64,000 nucleotides of DNA from a virus: positions 1-64,000 of IMG/VR virus record IMGVR_UViG_3300027804_000049. One strand, 5' to 3'. The position numbers were made by a program, and so were the translations under genes. Of the stretch, positions 5,266 through 12,097 are shown piece after piece; position 1 is the stretch's first letter, and each line of letters begins with the position of its first letter. Below the pieces are notes generated by a model. It was not told the origin of the DNA and searched no databases. It saw nothing but the letters and a program-made list of their open reading frames with translations.

Positions 5266-5281
5266 CCTAAGCAGTTAAGAG

Positions 5282-5318
5282 ACCGCCCGTCTTCCTTGGA
5301 AGGTGGGCGGTTTTCTTT
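5282..5318 (+). terminator. Rho-independent terminator
   Basis: ACCGCCC..CTTCC/GGAAG..GGGCGGT hairpin followed by TTTCTTT. Confidence 0.75.
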
Positions 5319-5384
5319 GTAGTCAAATCTCGAGACTAATAGTATAGTATGCCCTTAGGATCCTGCCCGAAATGAGAGAGCTAA

Positions 5385-8093
5385 ATGCCAATTGACTTTC
5401 CCAATAGCCCGACGGTAAACGATGAGTTTACGTCCGGCTCTACAACCTGGCGTTGGGACGGAAGCGTCTGGAAAGTAGTTCGCGACTTTGCGCCGACGGG
5501 CGCGACTGGTCCAACTGGAGTAACGGGCGCTCAAGGACAAACTGGTATAACAGGCGCGCAAGGCGTAAATTGGCGTGGCGCTTGGGATCTCGTTGCATAC
5601 GAGGTTGATGACGTTGTTATCTACTCTGGAAACTCATACATTTGCGTCACCGCGATTTCAGCTGGTGACTCTGCATCACACACTCCTGGAGTCTCTGCGC
5701 GATGGGAACTTTTCACCGCAAAGGGTAACACCGGAAACACTGGAGCTATTGGACAAACTGGAGCTACTGGAGTTACAGGGTTAACGGGAGTTACGGGAGC
5801 ACAAGGTGTAACAGGTGCTACCGGCTTAACCGGTGTAACCGGTGCGACTGGCCCAGCTGGCGGATCTGCAAACATCTTTGAGTACAAGGCAGATACAAAC
5901 TCACAGGCGGACTCAAATCCTGCAAACGGATATCTTCGTTGGAACAACTCAACGCAAACGAGCGCAACATTTTTATACATTGACAGTATTACAACTGAAG
6001 GCGTAGAAGTTGGTGTTCTTCTTAATCTTTTGAAGGTTCCAGACAAGATCATCATTCAAAAGAAGGCAGTTGCTACCGACTATCAGACATTTACAGTTTC
6101 AGGAACTCCAACTTTTGCAAATGGAAACGGATACATAAAGGTACCCGTTAACCTTGTCGAGTCAAGCGGAGCTGGCACGACTAACTTCTCCAACAATGAC
6201 ACGCTTGATCTCTTCATCTTTACAAGCGGTATCGCTGGACAAACCGGTGTTACTGGCGCAACGGGAGCAGTTGGTGAGACTGGCGCAACAGGCTTAACCG
6301 GAGTTACGGGCGCAACTGGAGCTCAAGGTGAGACTGGCGCAACGGGAGCGCAAGGCAACACTGGAAACACTGGAGTTACTGGCCCAACAGGACCGCAAGG
6401 AACGTCAATTGAATTTAAGGGAAGCGTAGCAAACACGGGCTCACTTCCAACTGGTGCAAACGATGTGAATGATGCTTACATCGTAGATGCTGACGGAGAT
6501 CTTTACGTATGGGATGGATCTCAGTGGAACAGCGTTGGACAGATCGTTGGACCGCAAGGACCAACCGGTAACGCTGGAAATACTGGAGCAACAGGTGCTA
6601 CCGGTGAAACTGGAGCAATGTCTACAGTTGCGGGAAGCGCACCAACAGGAGCCGCGACCGGTGATCTTTGGTATGACTCCGAGTCCGGAAATATCTACGT
6701 TTACTACGATGGTTTTTGGGTAGAAGCTGCATCCGCAAATGATGGGCCAACAGGAAACACCGGAGCTACTGGAGCAACTGGCGCAACAGGTTTAACTGGT
6801 AACACTGGTCCAACTGGTGATGATGGGCAAATGTCTACTGCAGCAACAACTGCTCCTACAGGTGCAGAGACTGGAGACATGTGGTATGACTCCGAGTCTG
6901 GAAACGTTTATGTTTATTATGACGGATATTGGGTCGAGGCTGCGAGCGCAAACGATGGTCCTACAGGTAACACTGGTCCAACTGGTGCAGCGGGGCAAAC
7001 TGGCGCAACTGGCTCTACTGGAATCACAGGTCCTACTGGCACATCAACTCTTACGCGTTATAAGTACACAGCTGCAACAGGCGCAACTGGCGTATCTGGA
7101 GCAGATGATAACGCCGTAACCCTAGCCTACACCGCAGGTAAGGAACAACTTTATCTCAACGGTGTTCTTCTTGTAAGAGGCTCAGACTACACCGCAAGTA
7201 ACGGAACGTCAGTCACGGACATGACCGCGATGGATGCAAACGACGTTGTTGAGATCTTAACCTTTGAGAACTTTAACATTGCTGATGCAATCATTGACAC
7301 AATCGTTGACGCAAAAGGAGATTTACTTGCGGGAACTGCGGCAGATACGGTGGGGCGCCTTGCGGTAGGAACCAACAATCATCGCTTGGTCGCTGCTTCA
7401 GGCGAGGCTACAGGACTTAAATATGTAGCCGATACCCAAAACACAGTAGCGGATGCTAAAGGTGATTTACTGGTTGGCACTGGTGCTGACACAATAGCCC
7501 GCCTAGCAGTAGGCACAAACACATACATTCTTACAGCGGATTCTGCGGAAAGTACAGGCCTGAAATGGGCTGCTCCTGCTGGTGGTGGTTCAATGACATT
7601 AGAAAGCACAACAGCATTTACAGGAAATACTGTCACAGTAACGCTTCCTTCATCTGCACTTGGATATAAAAAATTAATTTTACATCTTGACAATTGGTCT
7701 ATGACAGGTGGAAATGGTTATCACACATGCAGATTTAATAACGATTCAGGGGCTAACTACAGAATCACAGGTCACATGGCTTACACACACGCATCTGATG
7801 CTGTTTATGGTGATGCTGCTGCAACAAAAATTGCATTTCCATATCCTTCAAATATGAATCAAGGTTCATTTGGTAGTGCATGGATGGAAATAAAAAACCC
7901 ATATACAACAACAGGACATAAACTGATTGATGCAATTTACACAGGAACTGAAGGATTAGGAACACCTGCCAACATGATTACCCATATTGGTATTGCTTAC
8001 ACAGGTGGCGCATTAACAACAATTTCATTTGCAAATGATTCAGGTGGTAAGTCTTACAATAACGGCACACTTTATATTTATGGGGTGAAATAA
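5385..8093 (+). CDS. Collagen-like tail fibre with variable C-terminal tip (902 aa)
   Basis: [10 protein letters not shown]-terminus, G-X-T runs, duplicated [11 protein letters not shown].YVYYDGxW knob, DAKGDLL repeats, AT-richer C-terminal domain. Confidence 0.85.
7509..7540 (+). repeat. 32-bp exact direct repeat, left flank of cassette 1 (second copy 8517-8548)
   Basis: GTAGGCACAAACACATACATTCTTACAGCGGA identical at both sites. Confidence 0.9.
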
Positions 8094-8294
8094 ATGAAAC
8101 CTTTAATAACGATTAATGACAATGGAAATGTTGTAACAAGGGAAATGACAGATGAAGAATTTGAACAAGTCCTTGCAGATGAAGCCTATTACAATGAATT
8201 AAAAGCAACACTTGAAGAAAAAAAGAATCAACGGATTGCACTTCTTGACAAATTAGGGATTACTGAAGATGAGGCTAAACTGCTTCTAGCATAA
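8094..8294 (+). CDS. Small fibre-tip partner / chaperone-like protein
   Basis: Abuts the fibre gene; helical C-terminus LGITEDEAKLLLA parallels 9034..9291. Confidence 0.65.
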   Translation: MKPLITINDNGNVVTREMTDEEFEQVLADEAYYNELKATLEEKKNQRIALLDKLGITEDEAKLLLA

Positions 8295-8305
8295 TCCCTC
8301 AAGAT
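8285..8305 (+). repeat. 21-bp direct repeat, right flank of cassette 1 (second copy 9287-9307, 1 mismatch)
   Basis: TCTAGCATAATCCCTCAAGAT vs TCTAGCACAATCCCTCAAGAT. Confidence 0.9.
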
Positions 8306-8402
8306 AGTTCACAAACAGACAAACAGAAAGGTATGTAGTAACTAATGGCTACAGGTAGAATCGGTACTAGTATTGTCATATACCTTGACAAAGGAGGCAT
8401 AG

Positions 8403-9032
8403 ATGACAAGAGCACGTGATCTTGCGTCAAACTCGACAGGATCAAAACCGACGCTTATTGATGCAAAGGGAGATTTACTTGTTGGAACTGCCGCTGACAC
8501 CGCAGGTCGATTAGTTGTAGGCACAAACACATACATTCTTACAGCGGACTCTGCAGAAACGACAGGATTGAAGTGGGCTGCACCTGCTGCTGGTGGAAAG
8601 GTGTTGCAAGTTGTTAGCGCAACTTATGCAACTGCAACTACTACAACTTCACAAACATACGCGGACACAGGTTTAACTGCAAGTATCACTCCGTCTAGCG
8701 CAAGTAGTAAGGTTTTAGTTTTGACTAATCATCAATTATATGTAGTTAGAGAGTCAGATGAGGCTGGTGCGGCTATTCGTATTATGCGGGGAGCAACTTC
8801 AATCTATGATCCTTTTGGAAATAGAGGAGCGCCATTTTTTAGACAACTTACAGGAAGTCTTACTGAAATATCTGCACAAACAACTTACAGTTATTTAGAT
8901 TCCCCTGCAACAACTTCTGCAACTACATACAAAACACAATTTAGGGTAAAAAATGCCGCTAACAATTGCACGGCGTATGTTCAAGAAAACTCAAGTCCAT
9001 CATCAATTATTTTACTAGAAATAGGTGCATAA
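8403..9032 (+). CDS. Short tail fibre / receptor-binding tip protein (209 aa)
   Basis: AGGAGG SD; [29 protein letters not shown] shared with the 902-aa fibre, then a different beta-rich tip. Confidence 0.75.
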   Translation: MTRARDLASNSTGSKPTLIDAKGDLLVGTAADTAGRLVVGTNTYILTADSAETTGLKWAAPAAGGKVLQVVSATYATATTTTSQTYADTGLTASITPSSASSKVLVLTNHQLYVVRESDEAGAAIRIMRGATSIYDPFGNRGAPFFRQLTGSLTEISAQTTYSYLDSPATTSATTYKTQFRVKNAANNCTAYVQENSSPSSIILLEIGA

Positions 9033-9033
9033 T

Positions 9034-9291
9034 ATGGCAACAGGTGCAGAGGTTTTATCAATGCTACGACCTAACGGCGGTTGGGTAATATCAGCAGATG
9101 ATTTTGATTCTATCCGTTTAGATGAAGGCGTTGCGCCTTTGACTAAAACTGAGTTTGAATCAGGGTTTGCTCAATATGATGCTTGGAAGGCTGAGCAAGA
9201 TGCTGCTAAAGCCCAAGCCAAAGCCTCAGCCGAAACTAAGTTACAGGCTCTAGGTCTAACCACCGATGATTTGAAAGCCCTTGGTCTCTAG
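9034..9291 (+). CDS. Small fibre-tip partner / chaperone-like protein
   Basis: ATG at 9034 just after the tip gene stop; ends LGLTTDDLKALGL. Confidence 0.65.
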   Translation: MATGAEVLSMLRPNGGWVISADDFDSIRLDEGVAPLTKTEFESGFAQYDAWKAEQDAAKAQAKASAETKLQALGLTTDDLKALGL

Positions 9292-9460
9292 CACAATCCC
9301 TCAAGATTATGCAACATGAAGCCGCGTTTATACATTAACCTTTCCTTTAACTAGGAAAAGGATAATCTTATAGAGGTGTTCCTAACCACAGGAAGAACGC
9401 AAAACGATCACCGCAGGCAGTTTCCTGTTATGATGACTCCAAGCTCAAAAGGAGATAGAC

Positions 9461-9718
9461 ATGGCCGCGATTGATTTTCCTAACTCGCCGACGGTGAATG
9501 ACACACACACCGTTGGAGATAGAACCTGGAAGTGGAATGGTTCTGTTTGGGCAGTCGTTCGTGCAACTGATATTTTAGTAGGTCCTACCGGAGCTACTGG
9601 AGCTGTGGGAAATACAGGTGCAACAGGTATGACTGGAAGCACAGGTGCAACAGGCACGACTGGAAGTGTTAATATTCATGATGCAAGCGCCGCGTTTGCT
9701 ATTCAGGTATTTGGATAA
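9461..9718 (+). CDS. Mini collagen-like protein with the shared N-terminal anchor motif
   Basis: [21 protein letters not shown] plus short G-X-T run; AGGAG SD. Confidence 0.75.
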   Translation: MAAIDFPNSPTVNDTHTVGDRTWKWNGSVWAVVRATDILVGPTGATGAVGNTGATGMTGSTGATGTTGSVNIHDASAAFAIQVFG

Positions 9719-10108: not shown

Positions 10109-11119
10109 GTGTCGCTAATCAACCGCTTGTTGAAGGCTAACCCGTCAGCGCAAGTTTCAGATATGCTGACTGGGTATTTTGTCATTCCTTCTGCCAAGCA
10201 AGATTTTGTTGGAAATGCGAGAGCGTTATGGATTGGTGGAAACACAAGTCATACAAAACAAACTACGATTGATTACATTAACATCAATTCATTAAGCAAT
10301 GCCACAGATTTTGGTGATTTAACAACCGCCTCTAATGCTGCTCTATCAAGCGCCGCATCCAGCACAAGAGCGGTTTTTGGAAGAGATACCGATAATGAAT
10401 TTGAATATGTGACTTTTGATACACTTGGTAACTCAACAGATTTTGGTGACTTTTCAGCGTCACAGCGCAGAAATGCTTCGGCAGGTGTATCTGATAGCAC
10501 TCGCGGTATTTTTGCTGGTGGTTTACACCCTACTACCGAAGCAAGATTTAATACTATTGACTACTTAACGATTGCTACAACTGGTAACTTAACAGATTTT
10601 GGAGATTTAACTTTAGCAAGATATGATTTAATCGGTGCGGCTTCAACAACAAGAGGATTATGGGCTGGCGGAAACTTTAACGCTTCGGGCGCTGGCGTTG
10701 TAAATGAAATAGATTATGTGACTATTGCTTCCACAGGAAATGCTACTGACTTTGGTGATTTGACCGTTGCTAGAGACGGCTCAGGTGGAGGCTCAAATAG
10801 CACCCGCGCCATTTTTTCAGGCGGTAACCTTGCCAGTACCGCTATTACAAACACAATAGACTACATAACAATCGCCTCAACTGGCAACGCCACAGATTTT
10901 GGAGATTTTTCATCAAATCGTAGGTATCAAAGTGGTGTTGCTGGACCTACGCGTCTTGTACTAACTGGTGGTTTAACAACACAAGGCGGCACTTATTCAA
11001 TATCTGTAACTATGGAGTATTTAACAATCGCAACAACTGGAAACTCAACAACATTTGGTGATTTATCTCAAAGTCGTTGGCGTCTTGCTGGCGCAAGTTC
11101 TGTTCACGGAGGAATCTAA
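10109..11119 (+). CDS. Repeat protein, probable beta-propeller (IDYxTIAxTGNATDFGDL repeats)
   Basis: Six ~48-aa repeats. Confidence 0.75.
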   Translation: MSLINRLLKANPSAQVSDMLTGYFVIPSAKQDFVGNARALWIGGNTSHTKQTTIDYININSLSNATDFGDLTTASNAALSSAASSTRAVFGRDTDNEFEYVTFDTLGNSTDFGDFSASQRRNASAGVSDSTRGIFAGGLHPTTEARFNTIDYLTIATTGNLTDFGDLTLARYDLIGAASTTRGLWAGGNFNASGAGVVNEIDYVTIASTGNATDFGDLTVARDGSGGGSNSTRAIFSGGNLASTAITNTIDYITIASTGNATDFGDFSSNRRYQSGVAGPTRLVLTGGLTTQGGTYSISVTMEYLTIATTGNSTTFGDLSQSRWRLAGASSVHGGI

Positions 11120-12097
11120 ATGACCTATTTACCACAAATTAGAATCCTTGTACCCAGCGCACAGGTAAGCAGTTATACAACTGGGTCTTTTAATTTACCT
11201 AGTGCTAGACAGGCGTTTGTTCCCCCTCTTCCTTCTGGCACAGCGGTTTTTGCTGGTGGCACTAGCAACTCAAATGTAATTTCTTATATTGATATAGCCA
11301 CTACTGGCAACGCAGTTGATTTTGGTGATTTAACTCAAGGAAGGGGTGCTGTTAGTGGGCTTGGGTCATCTACTAGAGGTGTATTTTGTGGAGGAAATAA
11401 CGGGTCAAATGTAAATACTATGGACTATATTGCATTTGCCAGCACAGGCAATGCAATAGATTTTGGTGACCTCGCGGATGTTTCTCAACGACCTGCTACA
11501 TGTTCAAATGGTACGCGCGGAATTATTACTCTTGGTCTTTCTTCAGGCGGTTATGGAAATGTCATAAATTACATCACTATCGCTACAACTGGCAATGGCA
11601 CCGACTTTGGCGACTCTACACAGAATCACGGATTTGCTGCTGCTTGTGCTAGTACAACGCGAGGAGTTGTTGGTGCTAGATTCTTAGGAAGTAATACTGA
11701 CTCTAATGTTATTGACTATGTAACTATCGCAACTACAGGAAACGCAACTGATTTTGGCGATGCCTCAGTTACGCGGCACAATAATGCAAGTTGTTCTAGC
11801 AATACGCGTGGTATTTGGGCTGGAGGAACTAATAGTAGCGATACAACTTTTAATGTTATTGACTATGTAACTATCGCAACTACAGGAAACGCAACTGATT
11901 TTGGCGACTTGAGTGTAGGAAGAATCCAACCGTCAGGAACTTCTAATACTACTAGAGGAGTTTTTGCTAATGGCAGCAGTGGTAATGTTATTGACTACAT
12001 AACAATAGCCTCGACTGGAAATGCACTAGATTTTGGTGACTTAACAGCCAACGGTCTAGGTTCTGCCGCCGCATCGGGAAGTCACGGAGGAATCTAA
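11120..12097 (+). CDS. Paralogous beta-propeller repeat protein
   Basis: Same repeat; shares the PSAQVS N-terminal motif and HGGI C-terminus with the previous gene. Confidence 0.75.
   Translation: MTYLPQIRILVPSAQVSSYTTGSFNLPSARQAFVPPLPSGTAVFAGGTSNSNVISYIDIATTGNAVDFGDLTQGRGAVSGLGSSTRGVFCGGNNGSNVNTMDYIAFASTGNAIDFGDLADVSQRPATCSNGTRGIITLGLSSGGYGNVINYITIATTGNGTDFGDSTQNHGFAAACASTTRGVVGARFLGSNTDSNVIDYVTIATTGNATDFGDASVTRHNNASCSSNTRGIWAGGTNSSDTTFNVIDYVTIATTGNATDFGDLSVGRIQPSGTSNTTRGVFANGSSGNVIDYITIASTGNALDFGDLTANGLGSAAASGSHGGI

Follow-up and report, generated by a model that had tools for sequence, protein, structure and literature searches.

The first phage-encoded tyrosine invertase reported to act on a receptor-binding protein is Rin (Mavrich et al. 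2018, PMC6109161), whose shufflon in the Bifidobacterium prophages Bb423phi1, Bl157phi1 and Bl30698phi1 is the closest known system to a family of freshwater phage loci that we describe here. The family is seen from a window of 64,000 nt (positions 1-64,000 of the 114.6-kb IMG/VR virus genome IMGVR_UViG_3300027804_000049, estimated to be 89% complete), a stretch that takes in tail-fibre genes of that genome, among them two with repeated boundaries, and from viral contigs that share these boundaries, hereafter the relatives. Each distal fibre part in the window is one unit, or cassette, of a widespread standard module made up of a junction site (J), a tip, a small partner gene and a palindrome (P) of 20-26 bp. 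In relatives that bear a recombinase gene, the locus is a shufflon of the Rin type. We consider it probable that the window holds cassettes of this shufflon family in a fixed two-tip locus, one that was built by cassette import in a phage from which the inverting machinery is absent.

Like Rin, the relatives encode on the phage itself an Xer-like recombinase of the armless type that adjoins the locus, and they combine one constant N-terminal part with several C-terminal cassettes that have no start codon and with a short in-frame crossover site at the junction. Unlike Rin, they belong to a different fibre family and a freshwater host group and use the site ACACTYGTAGCGGAT rather than the 11-bp rix site TTCCCTAACCC; their cassettes furthermore carry a partner gene and end in a conserved palindrome of 7-6-7 layout, and palindromes with other spacers precede every silent junction and the recombinase gene. 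The window departs from Rin in another way, as its genome is without the recombinase and its two copies are direct and separately expressed. The G segment of Mu (Gin), the C segment of P1 (Cin) and the Min system of p15B also place tip and assembly-partner genes tail to tail in the invertible segment, with the crossover at the constant/variable junction of the fibre and a host-range switch as the outcome (PMC6109161). These, however, are serine invertases aided by an enhancer, whereas the relatives use a tyrosine recombinase, and a PF00239 search found no serine recombinase in the window's genome.

The R64 shufflon shares with the relatives a tyrosine recombinase and multiple inversions. Its enzyme, Rci, acts on asymmetric sfx sites in which the spacer and one arm are conserved and the other arm is free, and the silent J sites of the relatives likewise retain the spacer and the right arm only; the R64 target, by contrast, is the plasmid pilus adhesin PilV, and its cassettes have neither partner genes nor terminal palindromes. 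Integron cassettes (IntI/attC) resemble ours in being standard units with an imperfect 3' palindrome, the same cassette occurring in unrelated backbones. This is a likeness of cassette format, and it differs in that the 5' boundary here lies inside coding sequence, so that insertion must be in frame. In Alteromonas phages, fibre and chaperone modules, each a tip with its cognate small partner, are described as travelling together between distant phage families, in a paper whose title and abstract mention neither a recombinase nor defined DNA boundary sites (PMC10579305). What sets the relatives apart from the known systems is a different fibre family and habitat, the partner genes within the cassettes, and 7-6-7 palindromes with position-specific spacers. 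To our knowledge, descriptions of tail-fibre tip shufflons run by a tyrosine recombinase go back no further than 2018 and deal mainly with gut prophages. In the ecology and use of phages, host range is both the chief barrier and the chief lever. The tip-shufflon principle is now seen in abundant freshwater phages, with an exchanged unit of fixed format.

A cassette of standard format in freshwater phages

A preliminary description of the window, made from its sequence, had asked whether the boundary motifs found twice there bracket diverse pairs of tip and partner of similar length in other phages. For the right-hand motif, a search of IMG/VR with its 17-mer GCAYAATCCCTCAAGAT was positive in metagenomic viral contigs: more than 119 carry it, and the motif is thus not confined to this genome (counts of loci given below refer to the 119 listed, L001-L119). 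The motif is one half of a 26-bp near-palindrome with the extended consensus TAGCACAATC-CCTCAA-GATTATGCTA and the arms CACAATC/GATTRTG, which in these contigs always stands at the 3' end of a tip-plus-partner unit. Its flanks are diverse. At least six families of small partner genes end there, on either strand, and endolysin-like genes also start there; convergent gene pairs flank the palindrome in 51 of the 119 loci, and across the contigs it overlaps stop codons in different registers. A profile of the junction peptide matches 90 of the 119 loci, always reading towards the palindrome, at a distance whose median is 741 nt (5-95% range, 648-817 nt; 98 cassettes).

Across L001-L119, the N-terminal part of the partner goes with the class of the tip (MA.S.EVLSMLIPNGG.. 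with ..LLEIGA, and ..ERE M.D.EF.. with ..YGVK). The last ~15 partner residues (..LGITEDEAKLLLA or ..LGLTADDLKALGL) assort independently of tip class, as if the palindrome-proximal tail were itself exchanged.

Several comparisons show that cassettes move as units. The contigs L048 and L124, whose backbones are 97.5% identical, share one cassette at 99.9% identity over 736 nt; in L048 it is silent and inverted beside the recombinase gene, and in L124 it is fused to a full-length fibre. The identity runs from the first G of GTAGCG, within J, to the last base of the far arm of the palindrome, and the neighbours beyond these limits are unrelated. Other contigs are 94-98% identical both on the recombinase side and on the side of the constant fibre part and carry unrelated cassettes in between. 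Among the listed loci, 645 alignments end at palindrome edges and 206 span the palindrome. Cargo does not track the backbone in any of these cases, nor in the contigs L058, L067 and L120 that are compared with the window below. A near-unchanged unit is thereby found in unrelated genomes with the same two sites as its ends: exactly so at both for one pair, and with a left limit placed only to within ~60 nt for the cassette of the window.

Recombinase-bearing relatives and the nature of the palindromes

An open reading frame (ORF) for a 262-aa recombinase lies 0.8-2.4 kb from the palindrome in 19 of the 119 loci, and sampling from the recombinase side added 80 more loci (73-100% identity) with the same maps. 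The protein scores 53 bits against the phage integrase family PF00589 (cut-off 27). Among solved structures it comes closest to the armless integrase gp33 of mycobacteriophage Brujita and to XerA/XerC/XerD, with E-values of 1e-15 against Xer-type enzymes and the Brujita integrase and of 4e-9 against IntI4. In these relatives, which are freshwater phage contigs, the recombinase gene is transcribed divergently. Each start-less cassette opens partway through the junction peptide (..|VADSAE.TGLKW, motif positions 25-27), following a stop codon, and is either inverted or tandem with respect to the single full-length fibre gene. A locus has one or two such start-less cassettes, and the maps obtained from the recombinase side include two or three cassettes. 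An example map reads J> .. Pc .. J< Pt< .. J< Po< rec>, and the central palindrome occurs in either orientation. Inversion of the stretch from the active junction to the outermost silent one predicts two arrangements, and both occur, for instance in L079 and L028. From this architecture, and from the one cassette found in two contexts, we infer that the segments invert.

The putative crossover site itself is marked by GTAGCG, which occupies the Val-Ala codons in all 28 start-less cassettes and in 41 full-length copies. In recombinase-bearing loci, the core ACA CTY GTA GCG GAT is invariant, and the following Ser codon and the preceding VGTN codons vary. The other full-length copies of the junction, including that of the window with its ACAGCG (Thr-Ala), use varied synonymous codons, so that constraint at the DNA level is shown for the GTAGCG class only.

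Palindromes recur throughout these loci. One lies within 8-55 nt before every silent junction and a further one 25-80 nt before the recombinase start, beside which additional lone half-sites (e.g., GGCATAATCC and GAACAATCC) cluster. The arms are CACAATC/GATTGTG and the spacer is constant at 6 bp, its sequence depending on position: CCTCAA (also CCCCAA, TATAAA or CCCTAA) in the central palindrome, CTCTGA where it separates cassettes in tandem, and GCACAC or GTTAGC beside the recombinase. The junction site fits the same 7-6-7 layout, as CACACTY-GTAGCG-GATWSTG.

An intrinsic terminator or RNA hairpin was rejected for the two palindromes of the window, Pc1 and Pc2. Pc1 does not fold, the fold of Pc2 scores -8 kcal/mol (z-score -0.3), and a T run is absent from both. 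A terminator scan calls neither, yet it finds the phage's own terminator at 5279-5314, where, unlike at the palindromes, a T run comes after a G+C-rich hairpin. A tRNA-like or attP motif was rejected by eye (a loop of 6 nt rather than 7, and an unfit stem). A promoter for a single-subunit RNA polymerase or an N4-type hairpin promoter was rejected because the motif is present only twice in the 114.6 kb and both times at gene ends.

Among 100 unique variants of the palindrome, 232 departures in the arms are one-sided, 205 of them breaking the pairing, against 7 compensatory changes, in a search whose preference for near-consensus sequences biased it against compensatory changes. Given the one-sided changes, the lone half-sites and the lack of terminator likeness, we read the palindromes as putative protein-binding sites, most economically for the recombinase. 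In the relatives, the recombinase would exchange strands at the J spacer GTAGCG and invert the segment, which would fuse a different tip and partner to the constant part of the fibre; the P sites, sharing the 7-6-7 layout of J, would bind the same protein and would mark where cassettes recombine between genomes. A bolder version, which we hold to be rather improbable, makes the palindromes second sites of the same tyrosine recombinase, heterospecific by virtue of their differing 6-bp spacers. Together with the in-frame junction site they would make a two-site exchange device, comparable in function to an integron or to recombinase-mediated cassette exchange, that passes complete tip-plus-partner units between co-infecting unrelated phages, with recombinase-less phages such as the window's as recipients. 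If the palindromes are indeed sites of the recombinase, the loci would amount to a natural plug-in system for receptor-binding modules, with defined sites and an enzyme.

The same patterns could in principle arise by ordinary mosaicism through homologous recombination. The junction would then be kept for the structure of its peptide and the palindrome as a regulatory or insulating element at gene ends (an operator, an RNA 3' end or a weak terminator), general recombination would shuffle cassettes at these short conserved stretches, and the recombinase of the relatives would act at J only and be irrelevant to P and to the window's genome. In its favour, homology does not break off at a single base but tends to end along the borders of the conserved junction motif. 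P, for its part, lies between the convergent genes noted above, a position that would suit an insulator, and it provides stop codons and, in some loci, an endolysin start. Counted on the same side are the general recombination genes that the preliminary description ascribes to the window's genome. Against this stand the character of P, which is not terminator-like (a weak AT-rich stem without a T run, unfolded in Pc1 and different from the real terminator), the lack of covariation between its arms, its fixed 6-bp spacing with a varying spacer sequence and the occurrence of lone half-sites; very recent exchanges, those of cassettes 99.9% identical, moreover share only the 26-bp P as homology. 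We regard homologous recombination as an unlikely account of the cassettes, although one with some claim to be considered.

In many small phage contigs (L058, L067, L004, L030 and ~20 other loci), the endolysin-like gene (MPKLCAAGIQLREQIDDDYPDRDRK..) starts at an ATG in the palindrome right arm GATAATG. The 26-bp element there combines the stop of the partner gene, which falls within the left arm or adjoins it, with a start codon for which no ribosome-binding site is obvious.

The two-fibre locus of the window

The window carries two cassettes, the first fused to a large collagen-like fibre and the second to a short fibre gene with its own start. Their features are as follows.

5385-8093, + strand: main tail-fibre gene, 902 aa, with a collagen-like shaft, two junction repeats and tip 1 (Pfam Collagen, 1.4e-25; PHROG tail-fibre families).
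7311-7442, + strand: first copy of the junction motif, GLKYV type, upstream of the exchange point (hidden Markov model (HMM) E 2.7e-27); such a tandem pair of junction motifs is also present in L053, L070 and L120.
7455-7586, + strand: junction motif J1, the constant/variable boundary of the main fibre (HMM E 2.6e-28), with 97 nt identical to the main fibre of L120.
7509-7540, + strand: exact 32-mer, copy 1.
7526-7545, + strand: J1 site in the crossover register of the family, CATTCTT-ACAGCG-GATTCTG; relative to the family consensus CACACTY-GTAGCG-GATWSTG, the left arm and two spacer bases have diverged.
7590-8093, + strand: tip 1 domain, ending in ..LYIYGVK, 34-39% GC, placed by the end of L120 homology at 7590 and by the GC profile; the tip class ..YGVK is also present in L048, L055 and L120.
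8094-8294, + strand: partner 1, 66 aa, ..LLDKLGITEDEAKLLLA, directly after the main fibre, with its stop TAA inside the palindrome arm; its family terminates at the palindrome in many loci, and an atlas search gave a weak XkdW lead only.
8287-8310, + strand: palindrome Pc1, TAGCATAATC-CCTCAA-GATAGTTC; the left arm and spacer are intact, but the right arm has decayed.
8346-8420, + strand: short ORF MATGRIGTS.., MATGRIGTSIVIYLDKGGIDDKST, within a ~60-nt insertion relative to L120.
8403-9032, + strand: second fibre gene, 209 aa, which has an ATG and an AAGGAGG ribosome-binding site of its own and an N-terminus MTRARDLA.. like that of the second fibre of L120.
8463-8594, + strand: junction motif J2 (HMM E 9e-29).
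8517-8548, + strand: exact 32-mer, copy 2, identical to the J1 patch and lying between an L120-like N-terminus and an L058-like cassette.
8534-8553, + strand: J2 site, CATTCTT-ACAGCG-GACTCTG, in a register taken from the family.
8541-9312, + strand: transferred block that makes up cassette 2; it shares 89% identity with L058/L067 over 775 nt, and the flanks on either side are unrelated.
9034-9291, + strand: partner 2, 85 aa, ..KLQALGLTTDDLKALGL, with its stop TAG ending on the first base of the palindrome core; its weak XkdW lead in the atlas search makes up 27% of one cluster.
9289-9314, + strand: palindrome Pc2, TAGCACAATC-CCTCAA-GATTATGC, canonical, with 1 mismatch to the 26-mer consensus.

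Much of what the preliminary description saw in the boundaries is borne out. The 32-mer recurs exactly, where shuffled sequences lead one to expect 0 matches, and it is the core of a 137-nt direct repeat (7452-7588 and 8460-8596, 82% identity) that codes for the conserved junction peptide, of which an HMM search finds three copies in the 114.6-kb genome and no others there. The right-hand 21-mer recurs with 1 mismatch at 8285-8305 and 9287-9307, and its 17-nt core is present at only these two sites both in the window and in the full genome. The stop codons do stand in different registers, the TAA at 8292-8294 inside the motif and the TAG at 9289-9291 ending on its first base, and the enclosed cargo is both dissimilar (BLASTP E 0.36 for the tips and 0.22 for the partners) and AT-richer, at 34-42% GC as against ~50% in the flanks. 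The near-equal size of the two cassettes also holds here, at 756 and 750 nt from junction to palindrome, but it is not special to this genome: given the range of that distance across the 98 cassettes, it is a property of the whole family.

Other claims of that description fare less well. It took the left site to be constrained as DNA, and the synonymous identity over 11 codons on which this was based is only borderline significant: ~40% of the conserved codons outside the 32-mer differ synonymously (counted by hand), which gives ~0.003 per placement before correction for ~30 placements. Junctions of the same T-A-D class use varied synonymous codons elsewhere; for the 32-mer, a mosaic patch is a better reading than a constrained site. 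Nor does it serve as a motif of the family, its 26-nt core matching a single IMG/VR contig, L120. The stretch that it covers includes the position of the crossover core ACACTYGTAGCGGAT. The core GCA(C/T)AAnCnC said to be common to left and right sites (GCACAAAC against GCAYAATC) is probably a coincidence, as the VGTN codons vary synonymously in recombinase-bearing relatives; junction and palindrome do share the 7-6-7 layout, in a register other than that proposed.

The ancestry of the locus can be followed in two sets of relatives. In L058 and L067, the counterpart of cassette 2 sits on a different fibre and is followed immediately by an endolysin gene with its ATG in the palindrome arm, and the identity with the window stops at the last base of the palindrome. 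The collagen-like fibre of L120 has 986 aa, and its adapter matches window positions 7235-7590 at 91% identity; beyond the adapter come a different tip, a partner of the same family, a reversed palindrome and a second fibre gene, MTKARDLA... As L120 has the same two-fibre layout, that layout is inherited rather than the product of a fresh insertion. The second junction of the window is a three-part mosaic, consisting of an N-terminus like that of the L120 second fibre, 32 nt identical to J1 and an L058-like remainder, and cassette 2 probably came from an L058-like donor and was joined to a left flank of J1 type.

Further afield, the second fibre is related to tail fibres of Methylophilales phages, pelagiphages and P-SSP7 and matches orf22 of PDB 9efk (E 1.2e-5). 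Pfam and PHROG searches of the two partner proteins gave no match, and a DNA search of isolated phage genomes gave none to positions 7000-9500.

A simple old tandem duplication of a tip-plus-partner unit, with cargo that then diverged and ends kept by chance or gene conversion, would explain why the two units are adjacent, direct and equal in size, and the 32-mer could be a conversion tract. It is, however, contradicted by the findings: tips and partners have no detectable similarity, cassette 2 has an 89% identical relative in an unrelated backbone and cassette 1 belongs to a different class of tip and partner, and the right-hand motif is common to more than 119 contigs. We consider such a duplication highly improbable. 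A diversity-generating retroelement was ruled out, as no template-like repeat lies between the two cargos; a reverse transcriptase was not searched for.

As to the present state of the locus, tblastn with the recombinase of the relatives and a PF00589 search found no tyrosine recombinase in the 114.6 kb. Both pairs of sites are direct (J 1008 bp apart, P 1002 bp apart), whereas the crossover sites of the relatives are inverted, and the J spacer reads ACAGCG, as against GTAGCG wherever the recombinase is present. Three features that define a shufflon, namely a recombinase at the locus, start-less cassettes and inverted sites, are thus missing, and we do not class the window as one. Logan contigs break at J and P, which are stretches common to many phages, and none bridges the sites; among the joints listed there is no 1.0-kb deletion joint, the sides being <40 nt, of 88% likeness and from other phages, a pattern that weighs neither for nor against swapped, deleted or circular forms. 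The exchange system postulated in the preliminary description stands for the family, in which standard units are swapped among phages and the relatives have a dedicated recombinase, and not for this phage, where the lack of a recombinase, the direct sites and a cassette 2 with its own start leave nothing to show active exchange. The Sak4/Cas4-like genes, which it put forward for the exchange alongside an unknown recombinase, give way to the 262-aa tyrosine recombinase of the relatives.

It is also conceivable, though in our view quite unlikely, that the cassettes are still mobile here by way of a recombinase acting in trans, whose source would be a co-infecting relative, the host or the 11% of the genome that is not in the record. 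The direct J sites (1008 bp apart) or P sites (1002 bp apart) would then recombine to release a circle of ~1 kb and allow new units to be captured, in the manner of an integron. Direct repeats of both types of site do bracket one unit, every cassette ends 3' in P, a position comparable to that of attC, and Pc2 is a consensus-type site, 1 mismatch from the 26-mer; Pc1 is a hybrid of a reverse-type arm and a forward spacer, and in run X3, from another lake sample, the same end of partner 1 is followed by the palindrome in reverse. Speaking against such mobility are the missing recombinase, the ACAGCG spacer in place of GTAGCG, the decayed right arm of Pc1, and the two-fibre layout that L120 has in common with the window, which indicates inheritance rather than fresh insertion.

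We thus return to a fixed locus assembled from imported cassettes. Here both tips are fixed to their own expressed N-termini, and the virion would probably display two receptor-binding specificities at once; the repeated boundaries would be scars of cassette import and not working switch sites. Besides the bias of the variant search mentioned above, several points weigh against this reading. The BLAST match of cassette 2 starts at the J spacer, and its left limit can be placed only within 8541-8598. For the exact 32-mer, a gene-conversion patch is assumed as the source. Among the contigs, no inversion isomers of one single phage were seen. The genome is 89% complete, and a recombinase could sit in the missing part. 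That the recombinase would bind the palindromes is proposed from their resemblance to J in layout only, and in J the right arm changes with the Ser codon. The claim for the window itself is the more modest one, of a phage with two tips and with a fibre locus in which earlier cassette imports are recorded.

Other features of the region

The short ORF at 8346-8420 matches the N-terminus of a full-length fibre gene (MATGRIGVTPV..) that lies 3' of the palindrome in L034 and, judged from this resemblance, looks like a scar of the start of a lost third fibre gene. In L034, the stretch from +54 to +3020 relative to the palindrome holds another full fibre gene and then three tandem paralogues of ~165-190 aa. 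These resemble tips of the YGIK/YGVK type; unlike the start-less cassettes, they are stand-alone tip genes in an array.

Upstream of the 902-aa fibre gene, at 5279-5348, a strong intrinsic terminator (16-bp stem and T run) is followed by the only sigma-70-like promoter match of the region, and the two large collagen-like fibre genes are on this evidence separate transcription units. Downstream of cassette 2, an 85-aa ORF at 9461-9718 combines a tail-collar-like N-terminus (PHROG 3449) with a short collagen stretch, stops abruptly and may be a truncated or minimal fibre stub. Close behind the fibre genes, two adjacent ORFs of 336 and 325 aa at 10109-12097 contain ~10 repeats of ~147-156 nt with a shared 57-nt core (..IDYVTIATTGNATDFGDL..), and the copies at 11704 and 11851 are 100% identical; these ORFs look like a beta-propeller or other repeat protein, and their PHROG matches are weak and to families of unknown function.

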